In this document: positions 1-11,201 of the stretch, one piece after another
Position numbering within the stretch: the first letter of the stretch is position 1
How the letters are laid out: each line of letters begins with the position of its first letter
IMG/VR virus record: IMGVR_UViG_3300024999_000066
Coordinates: 25,920-89,919 of that record
Length of the DNA stretch: 64,000 nucleotides
Reading direction: 5' to 3' (one strand)
Source of the DNA: a virus
Position numbers and translations under genes: made by a program
The notes under the pieces: model-generated
The model's database searches: none
What the model was told of the DNA's origin: nothing
The model's input: the letters and a program-made list of their open reading frames with translations, nothing else

Positions 1-5
1 AACTA

Positions 6-35
6 TTGACAAACGGACTTGCGATAGTTTACTCT
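6..35 (+). promoter_or_regulatory. sigma70-like promoter
   Basis: TTGACA (6-11), 18 nt, TACTCT (30-35). Confidence 0.45.
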
Positions 36-68
36 TCACTTATAAATTTAATTAAGAGGAAATATAAT

Positions 69-275
69 GTGAAATGCAGATGCTGCAATATTGAGATGCT
101 TTGGCGTGAATTCAGGATGCTGCAAGATGATGGGTCTGAAGAAGACATGTGTTCCAGTTGCCTGAACATCGTCTATTATCCAGAATATTGTGAGCCTCCA
201 CATTACGCTTTTTCCGATATAACTGAGATGGCTGTTCCTTTCATTGTAACTCCACCAAAGAAAGTTGAATATTAG
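69..275 (+). CDS. small Zn-binding protein (CxCC...CxxC)
   Basis: ORF 6..275; better start is GTG at 69 after the AGAGGA RBS; MKCRCC...MCSSC. Confidence 0.6.
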   Translation: MKCRCCNIEMLWREFRMLQDDGSEEDMCSSCLNIVYYPEYCEPPHYAFSDITEMAVPFIVTPPKKVEY

Positions 276-276
276 C

Positions 277-305
277 TTGACAACGTTATATTATTACTTT
301 AATAT
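277..305 (+). promoter_or_regulatory. sigma70-like promoter for the tRNA/ncRNA island
   Basis: TTGACA 277-282, 17 nt, TAATAT 300-305. Confidence 0.55.
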
Positions 306-342
306 ATTATGACCGTGGGTTAACGGTAATTTTATATATCTA

Positions 343-417
343 GCGGATATAACTCAGAGGCAGAGTGTCAGCCTTCCAAGCTGTTCGTCGGGATTTCGAA
401 ATTCCCTATCCGCTCCA
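343..417 (+). tRNA. tRNA-Gly (anticodon TCC)
   Basis: Acceptor GCGGATA/TATCCGC, anticodon loop CTTCCAA, T-loop TTCGAAA, discriminator T plus encoded CCA. Confidence 0.9.
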
Positions 418-424
418 GTTTCAC

Positions 425-652
425 CCCAACACGAAGAATCAATTCTAGAAAGTTGGGTTTCTCCCGCTGGCTCATCTCTCCTTCCAGCACTTAAGCGTGT
501 AGAGTTTCTCCTCCTTTATTGCGCTATTGACCTTGAGCAACTTGTTAACTGCCTCTCCTCAGAATAACGAGTTACACCAACAGGGTCATTTCTAAATAAT
601 CTTGTAACTCTTCAGTTATAATGCCAGTAAGCTGGTCAGGATTATTTAGAAA
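425..652 (+). ncRNA. candidate structured ncRNA with four single-stranded UCUCC segments
   Basis: Five consecutive stems, including the 16-bp 589-604/637-652; G-U pairs favour the + strand; no ORF. Confidence 0.65.
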
Positions 653-665
653 GTATTATTTCTCA

Positions 666-753
666 TGTGTTCTAATAGCTTAATTCAGGTCGCTCCTGAT
701 TGGAAGAGCAAGCATATGAGGCTAGTGTAAGTTCGAATCTTACTTAGTTCACA
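666..753 (+). ncRNA. degenerate tRNA-like element with a hairpin inserted in the D-loop
   Basis: Perfect T-arm GTAAG-TTCGAAT-CTTAC, D-stem GCTT/GAGC, mismatched acceptor stem, no CCA. Confidence 0.55.
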
Positions 754-786
754 GCAGAAATATTATTTATAAATAGGTAAACACAA

Positions 787-1203
787 ATGGCTGGTCCAAC
801 TAAAGACAAGCAAACAGCAGCACAGAAAGCTCATCGTTTTGATGGCGAGAAAAGCAATCGTAACACTAAGGGCAATTCCAAGGTTCGTATCAATAAATCA
901 AAATTGCGTGTTCTTGCAGAGAAGCTGCTTGAGCGTCAAGATATTGCATTAGAGTTGGTCGATAAGAGTCTTGCCGGAAAAGAAACTAATCCAGAAAGTA
1001 CTGCCAGTGCTAAATGGGTGCTCAACTCAATCGTCAGTGTGATCAAAGCAGCCTCTGCTGAAGAGCTTGGATCGTTCAATGCTCGTCTCAAAGGTAAGCG
1101 TGATGATGAACCTGAAGAACAAACTCCTGCGGAAATCAGCAAAGAATTGAAGCCACGTCTTAGTCTGGTCTACGTTGACCCAGAGGACCAAGACGACGAA
1201 TGA
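787..1203 (+). CDS. hypothetical protein, possible terminase small subunit
   Basis: 138 aa, basic N-terminus (RFDGEKSNRNTKG), helical core, acidic tail, upstream of terL; TerS call is inference. Confidence 0.45.
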   Translation: MAGPTKDKQTAAQKAHRFDGEKSNRNTKGNSKVRINKSKLRVLAEKLLERQDIALELVDKSLAGKETNPESTASAKWVLNSIVSVIKAASAEELGSFNARLKGKRDDEPEEQTPAEISKELKPRLSLVYVDPEDQDDE

Positions 1204-1323
1204 TGTAACCCATAAGTCACATATACTAAACATTATCTTCTAAATGTTATATTTAGTGGACAATATATGGGAATTATACTAGATTATTTGAATTACTATA
1301 ATCGGTCTATAGTCGTCTATAAT

Positions 1324-1339
1324 TATATATATATATATA
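1324..1339. repeat. (TA)8 run at the end of an AT-rich tract
   Basis: tatatatatatatata read directly. Confidence 0.8.
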
Positions 1340-1790
1340 AAAGAATTTACAGGGCACAGCGGAGAATCTAAGACGCTGATCCGGCAAGATTGGAAGGCTT
1401 GTTCCTTTGTTAAGCTGACGAAGGATAACGGTGCATAATTCCCAGTGGGCATGTTGGTATGGAATGACCTTAAAATGGTCTGAGTTGGTTCGACTCCAAC
1501 CCCCTTGGGTGAAGATGAAGTGAGTACATCCCCTGTAAACCTAACTAAGCTTCGGCCTAGTATCTTCAAGTAAGTCCTAGTTCCTTGAAGAAAGCTTACT
1601 AAACCAACTAGTAAGTGTAATACCATTTCATGAAGAACAATACTTTCAACGTTTGTTGAAACCTTAGTGGATGGTGAAATGTCTACCCGAAAGGGCGTGG
1701 AGAGACTGAGTAAATCTTGTGCTCAGAGAGTTGTCAGGTCAGGTTAAGATTGTGGACGCTGACACAAGTATTTTATAAACCATATTAGAA
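1340..1790 (+). ncRNA. large highly structured ncRNA (ROOL/GOLLD-like candidate) with embedded tRNA-like module
   Basis: More than 12 stems, long-range 1346-1354/1531-1539 pairing, UUCG and GAAA tetraloops, T-arm at 1484-1500, no credible + strand ORF. Confidence 0.7.
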
Positions 1791-1838
1791 GTGTGGTTGT
1801 GATAAAGCATTCCAAACAACAAATATTAAAGGAATGTA

Positions 1839-2681
1839 ATGAGTGTATACAAGCTACAAACTACAAGTTGGATTAACTTATCTACCTTATCTTCAATTGA
1901 TATAACACTCAGCAGCGTAAAAGTTACAAATCTTAGTAGTGGTACTATATATGTAACAAGATCAGCAACTATTCCAGAACCTTCGTTTGTAGGTAATCAA
2001 GTCTTCCCAAAAGAGACTAGCTCTATTACCAAGGACACACTTCAAACTTGGATTAGGGCGCCATACCTTGGTGCTATTGACGTTGAGCCTCTGCTTTCCA
2101 ATTCCATAGAACCATTTACATCGGTAGACCTACCCTCTGATGTGTGGACATCGGTGAGAGAGGGTTATAGACGGCTTAGGGTTGATTCAGCACAGACAGG
2201 ATTCTTTGAGGGAAGGGAGTTTCGCACTTTTAAGGAGCTTAGCATTTCCTCTGGTGCAACTTTGGTGATGAGAATCACAGTCCCTGTAAATACGATCCTA
2301 CAGAATGTTAGGCTTTCCTTAGATGCGGGGTCTATCAAACTGCGTACTGTAGTTGGTGGGACTCCAACGGGGGTGTTTGGTGAAACTCTGCCAACCATCT
2401 CTAAAAATACAATGACCGGTGGAGTATTTCCTGCACCACCTATTCCGTTGTATGTTGCTCAGAACACAATTATGTCTGGTGCAACAGCTTTAACAGGCGG
2501 GGTTGACATTGACGTCATCCGCATTGTTGTAGCTAACGCAAGCGGTCAAGCACAGTCAGTGGGTGCAGCGGTAGATGATTCTCGTGGTGTGGGCCCAGGA
2601 ACTTACTATTGGATTTTCAATAACTTTGGTTCAGGGACTGCTACAGGTGTGTTCTCAAGTTTTTGGGAAGAGCGTCCTTAA
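1839..2681 (+). CDS. hypothetical protein, probably virion-associated beta-rich protein
   Basis: 280-aa ORF with AAGGA RBS; Ser/Thr/Gly/Val-rich. Confidence 0.6.
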   Translation: MSVYKLQTTSWINLSTLSSIDITLSSVKVTNLSSGTIYVTRSATIPEPSFVGNQVFPKETSSITKDTLQTWIRAPYLGAIDVEPLLSNSIEPFTSVDLPSDVWTSVREGYRRLRVDSAQTGFFEGREFRTFKELSISSGATLVMRITVPVNTILQNVRLSLDAGSIKLRTVVGGTPTGVFGETLPTISKNTMTGGVFPAPPIPLYVAQNTIMSGATALTGGVDIDVIRIVVANASGQAQSVGAAVDDSRGVGPGTYYWIFNNFGSGTATGVFSSFWEERP

Positions 2682-2752
2682 GTAATTCTGAGAGGCTATT
2701 AAAGGATTAGTAGCTTCATATTGAAATTATTTTAAGTTTATTTTGTAAATAC

Positions 2753-2782
2753 TTGACAGAATGACTTTCAGTTTGATATAGT
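2753..2782 (+). promoter_or_regulatory. sigma70-like promoter
   Basis: TTGACA, 18 nt, TATAGT. Confidence 0.55.
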
Positions 2783-2817
2783 TCATCCTCAAGTTTAAGA
2801 ACTAAGGAGAATTTATT

Positions 2818-3180
2818 GTGAATGAATATAAAGTACTAGTTACAGGTAATGATAGCATTGGCTACAGCTTCATGAAAAATGTGATTGAGCTGGCCAGTAT
2901 GGGCGCTACTCTTGAAGAAGGCAAGGTGCCTACAATGCGCTTCCCTTTCTCAGCTTGGATGTATCTCCAGACTGATGAGCTTATGGAAAGTAAACCAGGG
3001 TTTCAGTTCCAGATTATGCAAGAGAACTTTACTAAAGAGCAACTTGATGATATGGATTGGTCAGAATTCAAAGCTGTAGTAAAGAAAAAGTATGGCATCA
3101 CAGGTCGTGATCGTACACTTCTTACCAATCAGTATTTGAAAGCAAGTGGTCAAGTAGAATCTTCCAAGGAAGAAAAATAA
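2818..3180 (+). CDS. hypothetical protein upstream of terminase
   Basis: 120 aa, GTG start after AAGGAG. Confidence 0.7.
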   Translation: MNEYKVLVTGNDSIGYSFMKNVIELASMGATLEEGKVPTMRFPFSAWMYLQTDELMESKPGFQFQIMQENFTKEQLDDMDWSEFKAVVKKKYGITGRDRTLLTNQYLKASGQVESSKEEK

Positions 3181-3296: not shown

Positions 3297-4262
3297 TTGA
3301 ATTACCAGAAAATTTATAATGCTTTAGTTGAGAAAGCTAAAGTACGAGGTCTTGATAAAAAGAAACACGATGGTTACTTTGAAATTCATCATATCCTTCC
3401 AAAGTGTTTGGGCGGTAGTGACGACAAAGAAAACTTGGTAATGTTTACTGCAAGAGAGCATTATGTCTCTCACCTACTCCTCTGGAAAATGAATCCCGGA
3501 CACGTTGGTCTGTTTACTGCTGCTTTCTTTATGAGTAAGAAGAGATTATTTAAGTTTAGCTCAAAACTTTACGAAGTTTTAAAGTTAGAGCAAGCCAAAC
3601 AACTAGCTGAATTCAACTCTACGAACTCTGGGTTTAATAGTCCTGTATTTAAAGATTTGACTGGTGAGGTTAGGGGTAGGCTAACTGTAGTATCTTTTGA
3701 AGATTGGATTTTTCAGAAAAGTGGTACTAGAACATCTACTTGGAATTGTCTTTGTGATTGTGGAAACTCCTTAACATTAGCGGCAAAATTTCTAACTAAA
3801 AAGAGTGGAACACGCTCCTGCGGCTGCGCTCGAGTGGAAAAGATGAAAGCTCATACCGGCGAAAATAATCCATTTTACGGCAAGAAACACTCACCTGAAA
3901 CTCTTGAAATACTAAGAGAAAAGGGTAAAGGGAAAGGTGGTTGGAATAAAGGTTTAGTTCGCACTGAAGAGCATAAACGTAAAGTTTCAGAAGGTTTGAA
4001 AGCAAGAAACCGCCCCGCATGGGAAGCTGGAACAGTCATGAATAAAGATGAGCAACTAACTAAATGGTTGATGGCTGACTATTATTACGAATTATATCTT
4101 ACTAATACCACACTAACTTCTGCAAAGTTCACCACTCTGTATAATCGGCTACATAACGATAATTTGCCAGCAAGAGCTTTTACTGCAATGCACAGAGAAT
4201 TTGTTAAAGGTTGGATTCCTTTAGAAGATGAGAGGTGGGTGAAGTTTTCTAAGGGATTCTAA
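3297..4262 (+). CDS. free-standing HNH homing endonuclease (MobE-like N-terminus, Zn-ribbon, NUMOD3)
   Basis: EIHHILPKCLGG..NLV.FTAREHYVSH; WNCLCDCG..SCGC; GENNPFYGKKHS. Confidence 0.85.
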   Translation: MNYQKIYNALVEKAKVRGLDKKKHDGYFEIHHILPKCLGGSDDKENLVMFTAREHYVSHLLLWKMNPGHVGLFTAAFFMSKKRLFKFSSKLYEVLKLEQAKQLAEFNSTNSGFNSPVFKDLTGEVRGRLTVVSFEDWIFQKSGTRTSTWNCLCDCGNSLTLAAKFLTKKSGTRSCGCARVEKMKAHTGENNPFYGKKHSPETLEILREKGKGKGGWNKGLVRTEEHKRKVSEGLKARNRPAWEAGTVMNKDEQLTKWLMADYYYELYLTNTTLTSAKFTTLYNRLHNDNLPARAFTAMHREFVKGWIPLEDERWVKFSKGF

Positions 4263-5968
4263 ATGACAGAACAAAAGAAACTTCCGGGGCCGTGTTCATT
4301 ACGTCAAAGTATGTATATCGCCTCGGAGGCTGACGTAACCTTATTTGGTGGCGCAGCCGCGAGCGGAAAAAGTGAAATCGGCGTTATTGACTTCCTGAAG
4401 TATACAGACATTCCCAATTTCATTGGTGTAATGACACGTCGCACAACACCCCAGCTTAATGGTCCGGGTGGGTTGCTAACTAAATGTAAGCGTGTATTTA
4501 GTCAAGCATATAAACCAGATGAATATACTTGGCGAGCAAAAGATGGTAAGTTCGTGTTCCATGCCAGTGGTGCTGAAATTTATCTCAAGCACTTTGAGAA
4601 TGATGCAGCAGATGTGAACTGGCAAGGTTCTGAAGCGAATCTTTTCTATATCGATGAGGGAACCCAATATACGATGTATATGATACAATATATCATGTCT
4701 CGTATGCGTAATCCTTCATGCCCGTCAATCAAACCTCACCTCAAAATCACCTGCAATCCAGATGCCGATCACGGCCTCAGAAAGTGGGTAGAGCCCTACT
4801 TGCAAGAAGATGGTACTCCTGACCGTTCAAAAGACGGGATGTTGAGATACTTTTCTTTCATGGATGGTGACTTTGTTTGGGCTGACACTAAAGAACAACT
4901 CCTAGCTGAATACGGTGTAAGAGAGCAAGATGCTCTGTCTTTTACCTTTATTAGTGCTAACGTTTATGACAACAAAATTGTAGAAGAAGTTAACCCTAAG
5001 TATGTTGCTTGGCTTAAAGGTCTTCGCGGAACTGAACGTAAACGGCTCCTAGAAGGGAATTGGTTCGTTCGCGAAAGTGCAGCAGGATTCATGAAAAAAG
5101 AATTCTGTAGTAAGGTTAATTTGTTTGATAAAGAGATTGTGTCTTATTGTCGTGCGTGGGATATAGCAGGTTCGATTCCATCGGAAGCACTACCAAATCC
5201 CGACTGGACTGCTGGTGTTCTTATTGCTAAGACAAAACAAGGCAGATATATAGTAGTTGATGTAGTTAGATTTCGTGCAAGGTTTGGCGAAGTTATGGCT
5301 AAGATTATTGAAACTGCCAAGTCTGACCCTGAAGGCACACAAATCATTATCCCACAAGAACCCGGACAAGCTGGTAAAGCCGCTGGGCAGATGATGATTA
5401 AAGAACTTCTATCTGATGGATTTTACGCAAGAATGCGTCCATCTAATAAGTCCAAGATAATCAGGTTTCAGCCCTTCGCAGCAGCAGCAGAAGCTGGTCT
5501 TGTTGACTACGTTGAGGCTGATTGGAATGATACATATTTCGACGAGTTGGAAAGTTTTGACGGAAGTCGTAAGAATAAAGACGATTTATTAATCTTGGTC
5601 GTCTATAAACCCATTGAATTCGGTGGACCTCTCGTAAGAGACAATACCGAGCGAAGCCTAGTGATAGGAACGTGTAACGACTATCGAAAGCGCACAGTAA
5701 TGTGGAAGTGAGTAGAGTAGGGTCAAGTGACCCGAAGCGGTGGGCAAACAAAACTGTTTGAAGATATAGTCTCCTCTGTACAGTGATGTGCAGCAGTCGT
5801 ATACGACTGGATAAGATATAACGAATCTTATTTAAGATGATGCAAGTTGATGCTACAAGCGATTCTTTCATAACTTTAGCTCAAAGACAAGTTATTCCAA
5901 ACTTCTCATCCGGCCTACTCTCCGCAAATTTAACTCAATCTAACCCCTTCCTTAATGCAGGAGCTTAA
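4263..5968 (+). CDS. terL: terminase large subunit, spliced join(4263..5585,5843..5968), 482 aa
   Basis: Walker A GGAAASGKS, Walker B FYIDE, TCNP, RAWD; splicing restores the nuclease motif KDD-QVDATSDSF and puts the stop directly before the portal ATG. Confidence 0.93.
5586..5842 (+). mobile_element. self-splicing group I intron (IA-type), 257 nt, no ORF
   Basis: P1 GACGAU/GGUCGUC with U-G at the splice site; P GAAUUCGGUGGA, Q AAUACCGAGC, R AACGACUAUC, S AAGAUAUAGUC; terminal G; P10 CUUG/CAAG. Confidence 0.92.
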
Positions 5969-10726: not shown

Positions 10727-10766
10727 TACTCTGGGCAGCTTGTCTGCCCTCCTTTAAGGAGAGGCT

Positions 10767-11201
10767 ATGGCTCTTACCCCAGTAGAACAAGTTAGACTGC
10801 TTATTGGTGATGTACCAAACAGTCCATTTTATCAACTCTTTACGGATGAAGAGTTACAAGCATTCTTAGACATGACTAATCAAAATGTCTTCGCCGCTGC
10901 TCGTTTAGCTGCCATTGCTGCATCTTTCCAACTTGCTGGCTGGAGTACAAGAGAGAGGACCGGTGATATTGAAGTCTGGTCTAGTCTGTCCACTCAGTAC
11001 CTTAAAGCTCTTGATTATCTTATTAGTAATCCAGGAACTCTGATTCCCTCCGGGCTTATGCCTTGGTCTGCTAATAGTTGCCCAAGTAAGCTGATGAATA
11101 TTGAAGTTTGTGATGGTGATAATTGCAAGGAAGCGGCTTGTTGTGAGACTGGTTGTGCATGCAATGACTGTCACGCTGCTGGTGAGACATTTGTCTATTA
11201 A
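10767..11201 (+). CDS. head-tail adaptor with Cys-rich C-terminus
   Basis: VRLLIGD..FTDEEL motif; position after capsid genes. Confidence 0.75.
   Translation: MALTPVEQVRLLIGDVPNSPFYQLFTDEELQAFLDMTNQNVFAAARLAAIAASFQLAGWSTRERTGDIEVWSSLSTQYLKALDYLISNPGTLIPSGLMPWSANSCPSKLMNIEVCDGDNCKEAACCETGCACNDCHAAGETFVY

Follow-up and report, generated by a model that had tools for sequence, protein, structure and literature searches.

What is encoded in the noncoding DNA directly behind the only tRNA gene of an uncultured phage, and what might its product do? The stretch analyzed here (the window) is 64,000 nucleotides long and comprises bases 25920 to 89919 of the IMG/VR virus record IMGVR_UViG_3300024999_000066, an 89.9-kb genome that is 100% complete per CheckV, has a G+C content of 41%, and carries tRNA-Gly(UCC) as its sole tRNA gene (ARAGORN). 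Sequence comparison with related phages indicates that positions 418 to 652 of the window encode, on the + strand, a conserved structured noncoding RNA that belongs to a family of about 210 to 250 nt. The phages that bear this RNA are a clade of uncultured, tailed phages of 78 to 92 kb, distant kin of Ounavirinae-type Pseudomonas phages. Judged by the portal protein, the closest phage in culture is Pseudomonas phage vB_PsaM_M1 (49.8% identity; record classed in Ounavirinae), in which tRNAs are present and the structured RNA element was not found. The tRNA-Gly itself is 97.5% identical to the tRNA-Gly of the Pseudomonas syringae KIL phages.

A conserved RNA of five structural modules

An initial annotation, made from the letters of the window, had described five structural elements between 425 and 652, directly behind the tRNA-Gly gene. 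Minimum free energy (MFE) folding with RNAfold reproduced all five, and ARAGORN ends the tRNA at 417, immediately before the RNA, the Rfam tRNA match covering 343 to 414. The element is thus real, but its 5′ start shifts: the conserved unit begins at 418, with a GUUUCAC leader, and not at 425. The parts of the locus, in order, are as follows.

277 to 305, + strand: sigma-70-like promoter candidate, TTGACA-17-TAATAT (10/12 in a consensus scan; a pattern match only)
343 to 417, + strand: tRNA-Gly(UCC) with encoded CCA, its 3′ end abutting the RNA (ARAGORN; 52.5 bits on the Rfam tRNA model)
418 to 424, + strand: single-stranded 5′ leader GUUUCAC (GTTTCA in 11 of the 13 rows of alignment A6)
425 to 457, + strand: hairpin 1, an outer 6-bp and an inner 4-bp stem with an AAUUCU-type apical sequence (RNAfold MFE)
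458 to 465, + strand: linker UUUCUCCC, unpaired in the MFE fold
466 to 488, + strand: hairpin 2, with loop CUCAUCUCUCCUU at 471 to 483 (RNAfold MFE)
494 to 525, + strand: hairpin 3, with loop UUUCUCCUC at 505 to 513 (RNAfold MFE)
528 to 588, + strand: hairpin 4, with loop CCUCUCCU at 552 to 559 (RNAfold MFE)
589 to 652, + strand: hairpin 5, a three-way junction on a 16-bp A/U-rich stem (RNAfold MFE)

The five hairpins are obtained whether 418 to 652 or 418 to 668 is folded. Over the latter interval the + strand has an MFE of −63.5 kcal/mol (z = −3.77), which none of 200 dinucleotide shuffles equaled, while the − strand has a z score of −1.67, with 9 of 200 shuffles as good.

Homologues were collected by several routes. 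A 280-aa open reading frame (ORF) downstream led to 28 loci, in 3 of which blastn detects the element, and the adjacent 138-aa ORF (ORF138) led to 19 loci. A DNA-pattern search for the element gave 8 matches, of which 5 were true (2 of them new, L035 and L038) and 3 were chance matches in coding DNA (L031, L034, and L036) that we dropped. Since the pattern demanded TTCTCC and CTCTC, the linker and loop 2 of L035 and L038 are not independent evidence; the other homologues were found through neighboring proteins, so that adjacency to ORF138 is partly by construction. Covariance models were built from the window sequence alone (R1, 418 to 526; R2, 527 to 652), and nhmmer was also used. The models were run on 11 of the 28 loci found through the 280-aa ORF (L004 to L014), and all loci collected up to that stage were put through blastn or nhmmer. 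By nhmmer, R1, and R2, 12 other IMG/VR phage contigs have the 5′ half, and these 12 also have the 3′ half. A further full-length copy in record G002 brings the total to 13 other phage contigs; in the counts below, n = 13 includes the window itself, and the G002 copy is counted separately. The genome-wide search was of limited sensitivity, R1 having missed the G002 copy that is visible by eye. A distant variant, L053, retains hairpins 4 and 5 (R2, E = 0.006), and hairpins with UCCUCC loops can be seen by eye in L048 and L056.

The stems of this family covary extensively. In the alignment of the 5′ half (A6), 24 of the 26 base pairs change on both sides and 97.6% of cells are paired; in that of the 3′ half (A8), the values are 36 of 46 and 95.8%, and none of 500 shuffles reached those of either half. 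Shifting the partners by 1 to 3 columns, as a control, left only 34 to 44% of cells paired. Both-sided change affects 9 of 10 pairs in hairpin 1 (A6 helices 1 and 2), 5 of 5 in hairpin 2 (A6 helix 3, 100% paired), 10 of 11 in hairpin 3 (A6 helix 4), 18 of 20 in hairpin 4 (A8 helices 1 and 2), and 18 of 26 in hairpin 5 (A8 helices 3 to 5), so that in total 60 of 72 pairs show double compensatory changes. Both alignments were fitted to the structure of the window and are biased toward it. Single-sequence folds provide an independent check: when the 13 sequences are folded one by one, all arrive at the same layout of five modules, with hairpins 2 to 4 capped by CU-rich loops, and because these folds agree, the worry about alignment bias is mostly removed. 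Hairpin 4 occurs in a long or a short form, depending on the phage.

Covariation on this scale bears directly on whether the locus has any RNA-level function. It might instead be a relic of a tRNA array or an element acting as DNA (repeated CTCTCC boxes to which a packaging protein binds, as at a pac site, beside the terminase region), and its setting lends this some appeal, since the distant relatives L008 to L010 carry 15 to 20 tRNAs at the equivalent locus, compared with one in the window genome, and 3.6 kb separate the element from the probable gene for the terminase large subunit, which lies downstream. Yet neither decay nor a double-stranded DNA site can explain the 60 double compensatory pairs, and the excess of G·U over A·C among the paired cells (see below) is a signature of RNA. 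Furthermore, the Rfam tRNA model has no match in 418 to 652 at E ≤ 10, ARAGORN in relaxed mode likewise finds none there, and ORF138 has no likeness to TerS or to DUF5681. We therefore regard a nonfunctional or DNA-level origin as highly improbable. R1 and R2 did not detect the element in the distant relatives with 15 to 20 tRNAs. The window phage and its close relatives have 0 to 3 tRNA genes in the region examined, and structured RNAs stand where those relatives have their tRNA array.

The + strand is the folded strand

The initial annotation had argued from wobble pairs that the + strand is transcribed, and the alignments bear this out. Stem cells comprise 682 Watson-Crick pairs, 53 G·U pairs, and 5 A·C combinations; because a G·U pair becomes a C·A mismatch on the other strand, the + strand is the folded one. 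Conserved U·G pairs alternate with C-G and U-A, and in all six sequences compared the + strand folds better (z = −4.2 to −7.7) than the − strand (z = −1.4 to −4.2). The tRNA, the flanking ORFs, and the promoter candidate at 277 to 305 are all on the + strand as well.

These observations leave very little room for a − strand transcript, which would show AGGAGAGG and GAGGAGAAA loops and might act as a CsrA/RsmA sponge in the manner of RsmY and RsmZ. Sites of the CsrA/RsmA type have a GGA core within a hairpin loop, as each − strand loop would, and antisense RNAs occur, by annotation, in the tRNA region of phage PAK_P3. Against it, the − strand would turn 53 wobble pairs into mismatches and gain only 5 in return, it folds worse in every sequence compared, and the alternation of U·G pairs with C-G and U-A and the orientation of the neighboring genes and promoter candidate all point to the + strand. 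Nor is there an Rfam match to CsrB, RsmY, or RsmZ on either strand. The initial annotation had itself guessed that the sponge reading of the − strand would be disfavored, and we consider it most improbable.

Three conserved pyrimidine loops complement ribosome-binding sites

The stems drift freely in sequence, and the loops are the main conserved sequence, so that the comparison of loops with stems proposed as a check in the initial annotation shows CU-rich loops kept on stems that covary. The loop of hairpin 2 contains CUCC in 12 of 13 sequences, and the loops of hairpin 3 (judged by sequence) and hairpin 4 contain it in all 13; the MFE loop of hairpin 4 is exactly CCUCUCCU in 6 of 13, and this octamer lies within the loop region in 9 of 13. 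Altogether, 50 of the 65 CUCC occurrences are fully unpaired in MFE folds. The loops are nearly pure pyrimidine and vary in length from 7 to 17 nt around a fixed core, (C)CUCUCC(U). Conservation extends further to the AAUUCU-type word of hairpin 1, to a spacer, CUUAA, that separates hairpins 2 and 3, and to the three-way junction.

In the window, TCTCC starts at 460, 477, 507, and 554. Its frequency in the remainder of the window predicts 0.24 copies per 228 nt, against the four observed (Poisson P of about 1e-4), and nowhere else in the 64 kb, on either strand, does a stretch of that length exceed four. The initial annotation had counted four displayed UCUCC segments. All four are unpaired in the window fold, but only the three in hairpin loops are features of the family: the linker keeps CUCC in only 6 of 13 sequences, the others reading AUUCAC, GUUUAUC, and similar, and we therefore speak of three family loops and not four.

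As had also been claimed, the loops complement the dominant type of ribosome-binding site (RBS) of the phage. CUCUCCU is the complement of AGGAGAG, and GGAGA is the commonest pentamer at positions −18 to −4 of 154 crudely called ORFs of the genome, where it precedes 33, compared with 6 for GGAGG. The 8-mers that complement loops 3 and 4 occur outside the element only just before ATG or GTG (GAGGAGAA, 8 of 8 genomic copies; AGGAGAGG, 3 of 3). Across the 13 sequences, the CUCC loops thus form an exposed, conserved seed complementary to Shine-Dalgarno (SD) sequences.

Given that the loops complement the SD sequence and that known small RNAs (sRNAs) with CU- or C-rich loops work in this way, the reading we favor, with a probability of roughly 0.4, is that the locus encodes a tRNA-linked, processed RNA that would mask GGAG(A)-type RBSs, several per molecule. 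No conserved purine-rich partner is present inside the RNA, and the loops are therefore presumably available to a trans partner. The RNA may be cotranscribed with the tRNA from the sigma-70-like promoter candidate upstream, and its 5′ end could be released by nucleases of tRNA 3′ maturation. RNase E prefers RN|WUU, and the conserved R-G-UUU at the tRNA/RNA boundary would fit this preference; the sequence 5′ of the GUUUCAC leader is unrelated among the homologues. The stable RNA would then pair, through its three exposed loops and in some members the linker, with purine-rich AGGAG(A)(G) SD sequences. Such pairing would compete with the tail of 16S rRNA and might lower or time translation initiation on host mRNAs, phage mRNAs, or both, and several sites per molecule would make the RNA multivalent. 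The initial annotation went one step further and named a translational repressor of early or host mRNAs, which for the window RNA is pure inference.

As for the promoter candidate, sites of this kind number 8 in window positions 1 to 2000, compared with 5.4 expected. Between it and the tRNA-Gly gene, at 312 to 327, lies a small GC hairpin with a T-rich tail that was called terminator-like and that may be a leader hairpin and not a terminator.

Several observations weigh against RBS masking. None of the sequencing runs listed for the element is on record as RNA. Contigs of relatives from two wastewater libraries with the label "RNA-Seq cDNA" span 459 to 767, but that these runs are RNA is a guess and contigs reveal neither transcripts nor ends nor strand, so we give them no weight. 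Complementarity to the SD is generic, in that any CU-rich loop would match, and the phage genes share the same SD, so that a blocker of this unspecific kind would act on the phage too. The 3′ end is not of the kind found in Hfq-dependent sRNAs, with a U-run and terminator: hairpin 5 is followed by mixed A/U sequence without a U-run, and no terminator-like site was called within 418 to 786. The element seems to be dispensable, the complete relatives G001 and G003 having given no R2 match in a search of limited sensitivity. The RNA could also be the 5′ untranslated region (UTR) of ORF138, a possibility weighed below.

Two candidate partners were considered and set aside, which further weighs on this side. 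The gene at window position 10767 (144 aa) has an RBS that is a perfect 8-nt match to loop 4, but as a specific target it is unsupported: AGGAGAGG is kept at this RBS in one of five relatives (L061), and the other four element- or variant-bearing contigs read AAAGGAAT or AGGAGTGG. In the same interval (window 10737 to 10766; loci L060 to L115), many relatives keep CUGCCCUCCU 5 to 12 nt before AGGAG, a word that may either close the preceding gene or fold onto the RBS as a local anti-SD sequence. The second candidate was a long structured noncoding stretch 3′ of ORF138 (window 1340 to 1790). Pairing of the CU loops with this second RNA was rejected, as its GGAGAG partner is not conserved. Of 19 sequences compared (the window and 18 loci of relatives), 13 have GGAGAG-type words in the 900 nt that follow ORF138 and 6 have none; the words lie at unrelated positions, several being plain RBSs. 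A RegB-like complement was also sought, and Pfam PF10715 was found in none of five records (G000, which is the source record, and G001, G002, G003, and G005).

The same loops might equally serve as bait for a protein. Rho, which recognizes YC dinucleotides, and ribosomal protein S1 both prefer single-stranded C/U-rich RNA, and sponges of the CsrB/RsmZ type consist of several hairpins that each display the same short motif. The three pyrimidine loops could bind Rho, S1, or a phage protein, with the RNA titrating or recruiting it. The multihairpin display resembles such sponges, nearly pure pyrimidine loops of 7 to 17 nt around a fixed core would suit protein recognition as well as they suit pairing, and no conserved RNA target was found. 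On the other hand, what is conserved is a specific word, CUCUCC(U), beyond mere pyrimidine richness, and this word exactly complements the SD flavor of the phage. No candidate gene for a protein partner emerged either: ORF138 lacks a family match in Pfam, PHROG, and PDB, and there are phages that have it with no copy of the RNA beside it (at five loci) or, by R2, with none in the whole record (two records). We consider a protein decoy possible, if on the whole somewhat doubtful.

The RNA is not tied to one downstream gene

The RNA gene belongs to the region of tRNA and packaging genes. Although the window tRNA abuts the RNA, this arrangement is found in only a part of the family. A tRNA ends at the base preceding the element in 4 of 13 sequences, namely, the window (Gly), L004, L046, and L054 (Thr), and some of the remaining homologues have a tRNA about 85 to 115 nt 5′ of the element. 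On the other side, hairpin 5 ends about 25 to 40 nt before the start of ORF138 in 9 of 13. In the other four (the window, L006, L047, and L058), as in G002, the next gene is separated from the element by a tRNA-like module some 100 nt long; in L006, L047, L058, and G002 it begins with CUCAUGUGU. In the window this module (669 to 751) has a perfect T-arm; its score of 26.4 bits with the Rfam tRNA model is below the cutoff of 29, and ARAGORN did not call it.

The close spacing to ORF138 raises the possibility that the element acts in cis, either as a structured 5′ UTR that stabilizes the mRNA after tRNA processing or as a standby platform for S1 or the ribosome in front of ORF138. In addition to the spacing, no terminator follows hairpin 5, and the RBS of ORF138 is AUAGGU or AAAGG and not GGAG, its own SD being weak (UAGG/AAGG). 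Noncoding RNAs (ncRNAs) derived from 5′ UTRs are, in the portion of PMC10914365 that deals with them, common in Pseudomonas phages. However, the tRNA-like module intervenes in the five genomes named above, and in G002 the element is followed by a different ORF of at least 438 aa, with the ORF138 homologue about 3 kb away. Because the next gene in G002 differs from ORF138, the RNA is not tied to one downstream gene. Moreover, at five ORF138 loci (L040, L044, L050, L052, and L055) a coding region lies directly 5′ and no element occurs within 420 nt upstream, and the loops do not complement the RBS of ORF138. Since the downstream partner varies in this way, the idea of a cis-acting leader is weakened, and we consider it quite unlikely. 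In G002 (L127), the ORF of at least 438 aa is inserted, at 1810 to 3123, between the RNA island and the 138-aa gene.

ORF138 was also considered as a TerS or an RNA-binding partner and rejected: there was no Pfam match at E ≤ 0.01 and only subthreshold noise at E ≤ 10. It has no PHROG match, and a PDB profile search gave one match, at E = 0.08. BLASTp comparison with the PAK_P3 DUF5681 protein gave E = 0.083.

Relation to known RNAs

The RNA family is uncatalogued. A cmscan search of window positions 250 to 1900 with Rfam 15 at E ≤ 10 returned only tRNA, tRNA-Sec, MIR4221, and HIV-1_SL4; the same database at E ≤ 10 gave no matching family in homologue L054 (2140 to 2520), and at the gathering score it gave only tRNAs and a group I intron in 12 homologue loci. 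A blastn search of GenBank phages (50,697 records) with 418 to 660 gave only chance matches of about 30 nt (E of about 10), and in a limited literature search we found no description of a phage RNA of such design.

Among known RNAs, the closest in design are the cuckoo RNAs of Alphaproteobacteria (RSs0680/CcsR1-4 and SmelC397), which the account in PMC4615179, as far as it extends, describes as 2 to 4 adjacent hairpins with the same anti-SD-like loop and covarying stems. Like them, and within the limits of that account, the phage RNA is an array of hairpins with a repeated anti-SD-like pyrimidine loop, little sequence conservation in the stems, and many compensatory changes, and RBS pairing is proposed for both. 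Adjacent hairpins with the same loop and covarying stems are exactly what hairpins 2 to 4 provide, 33 of their 36 pairs changing on both sides. The phage RNA therefore works like a cuckoo RNA in architecture, but it is set apart by its loop word, CUCUCC(U) in place of the CCUCCUCCC given for cuckoo loops in the same account, and by the Rfam models of the cuckoo/ar14 type, which have no match at E ≤ 10 in the window region or in L054. In addition, its CU hairpins are flanked by two extra modules, hairpin 1 and the three-way junction, and it lies directly behind a tRNA in a virulent-type phage, whereas cuckoo RNAs, in what is described of them there, lie on a bacterial chromosome.

A functional parallel is offered by LhrC of Listeria, in which, by the description in PMC4132741 of this sRNA, three redundant CU-rich sites bind the SD region of lapB without Hfq. 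LhrC, RNAIII, RsaE, and SprD share with the phage RNA redundant, single-stranded, CU-rich sites for G-rich SD regions (PMC4132741, in the passages that treat them). They differ, as characterized there, in having UCCC where the phage RNA has CUCC, a length of about 100 nt, a terminator end, and a Gram-positive host, and there is no homology of sequence or structure between the phage RNA and LhrC or the UCCC-loop sRNAs. CsrB, RsmY, and RsmZ likewise display one short loop motif on several hairpins; their GGA lies on the transcribed strand, whereas here GGA occurs only on the disfavored − strand.

With respect to genomic position, the nearest precedents are ncRNA1 and ncRNA2 of PAK_P3, presented in parts of PMC4933390 and PMC10914365 as abundant, processed RNAs of the tRNA region with no start site of their own and of unknown function; for sRNA2 a T-loop-like 11-mer is proposed (PMC4933390). 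Band C and D RNAs of T4, mentioned in PMC4933390, are further stable processed RNAs of a phage tRNA region. To the extent that these accounts go, encoding beside a tRNA gene is common to all of them and the RNA described here. Any closer likeness to the PAK_P3 ncRNAs was rejected, since R1 and R2 found nothing in L039 and no CU loops were visible there by eye.

Regulatory RNAs of virulent-type phages are understood in only a few cases, and those of the T4 and PAK_P3 tRNA regions are without known function. Against this background, the family offers a structure backed by covariation together with a testable hypothesis, that of three loops complementary to RBSs. If the loops mask RBSs, or if they bind Rho or S1, they would represent an RNA-only route by which a phage reprograms host translation or termination. 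A bolder form of the RBS-masking proposal, which we think unlikely, is that the RNA would be a multivalent phage mimic of the mRNA-docking tail of the ribosome, made early from a host-type promoter and matured with the tRNA, which soaks up SD sequences generically, three to four at a time, and reallocates ribosomes. If this were true, translation may shift from strongly SD-led host and early messages toward those with weak or atypical RBSs, such as the AUAGGU-led neighbor ORF138, and a general RNA decoy of translation initiation would then be on record for a virulent-type phage for the first time. Multivalent tools that target RBSs would also gain a compact natural scaffold in this RNA. More broadly, "empty" spacers in the tRNA clusters of metagenomic phages can conceal conserved RNA genes.

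Other features of the window

Within the second structured stretch 3′ of ORF138, positions 1441 to 1508 are tRNA-like: ARAGORN in relaxed mode gives a weak "tRNA-Phe(aaa)" at 1442 to 1508, and Rfam gives tRNA-Sec at 17.1 bits. Farther downstream, an ORF at 3297 to 4262 encodes a free-standing homing endonuclease of 321 aa with HNH and NUMOD3 domains, its stop codon abutting the start of the next ORF. That ORF (4263 to 5711), just 5′ of the portal gene, looks by position like the gene for the large subunit of the terminase; at its 3′ end, at 5530 to 5793, is a group I intron (Rfam RF00028, 75.8 bits). The relative L042 also has a group I intron (88.3 bits).

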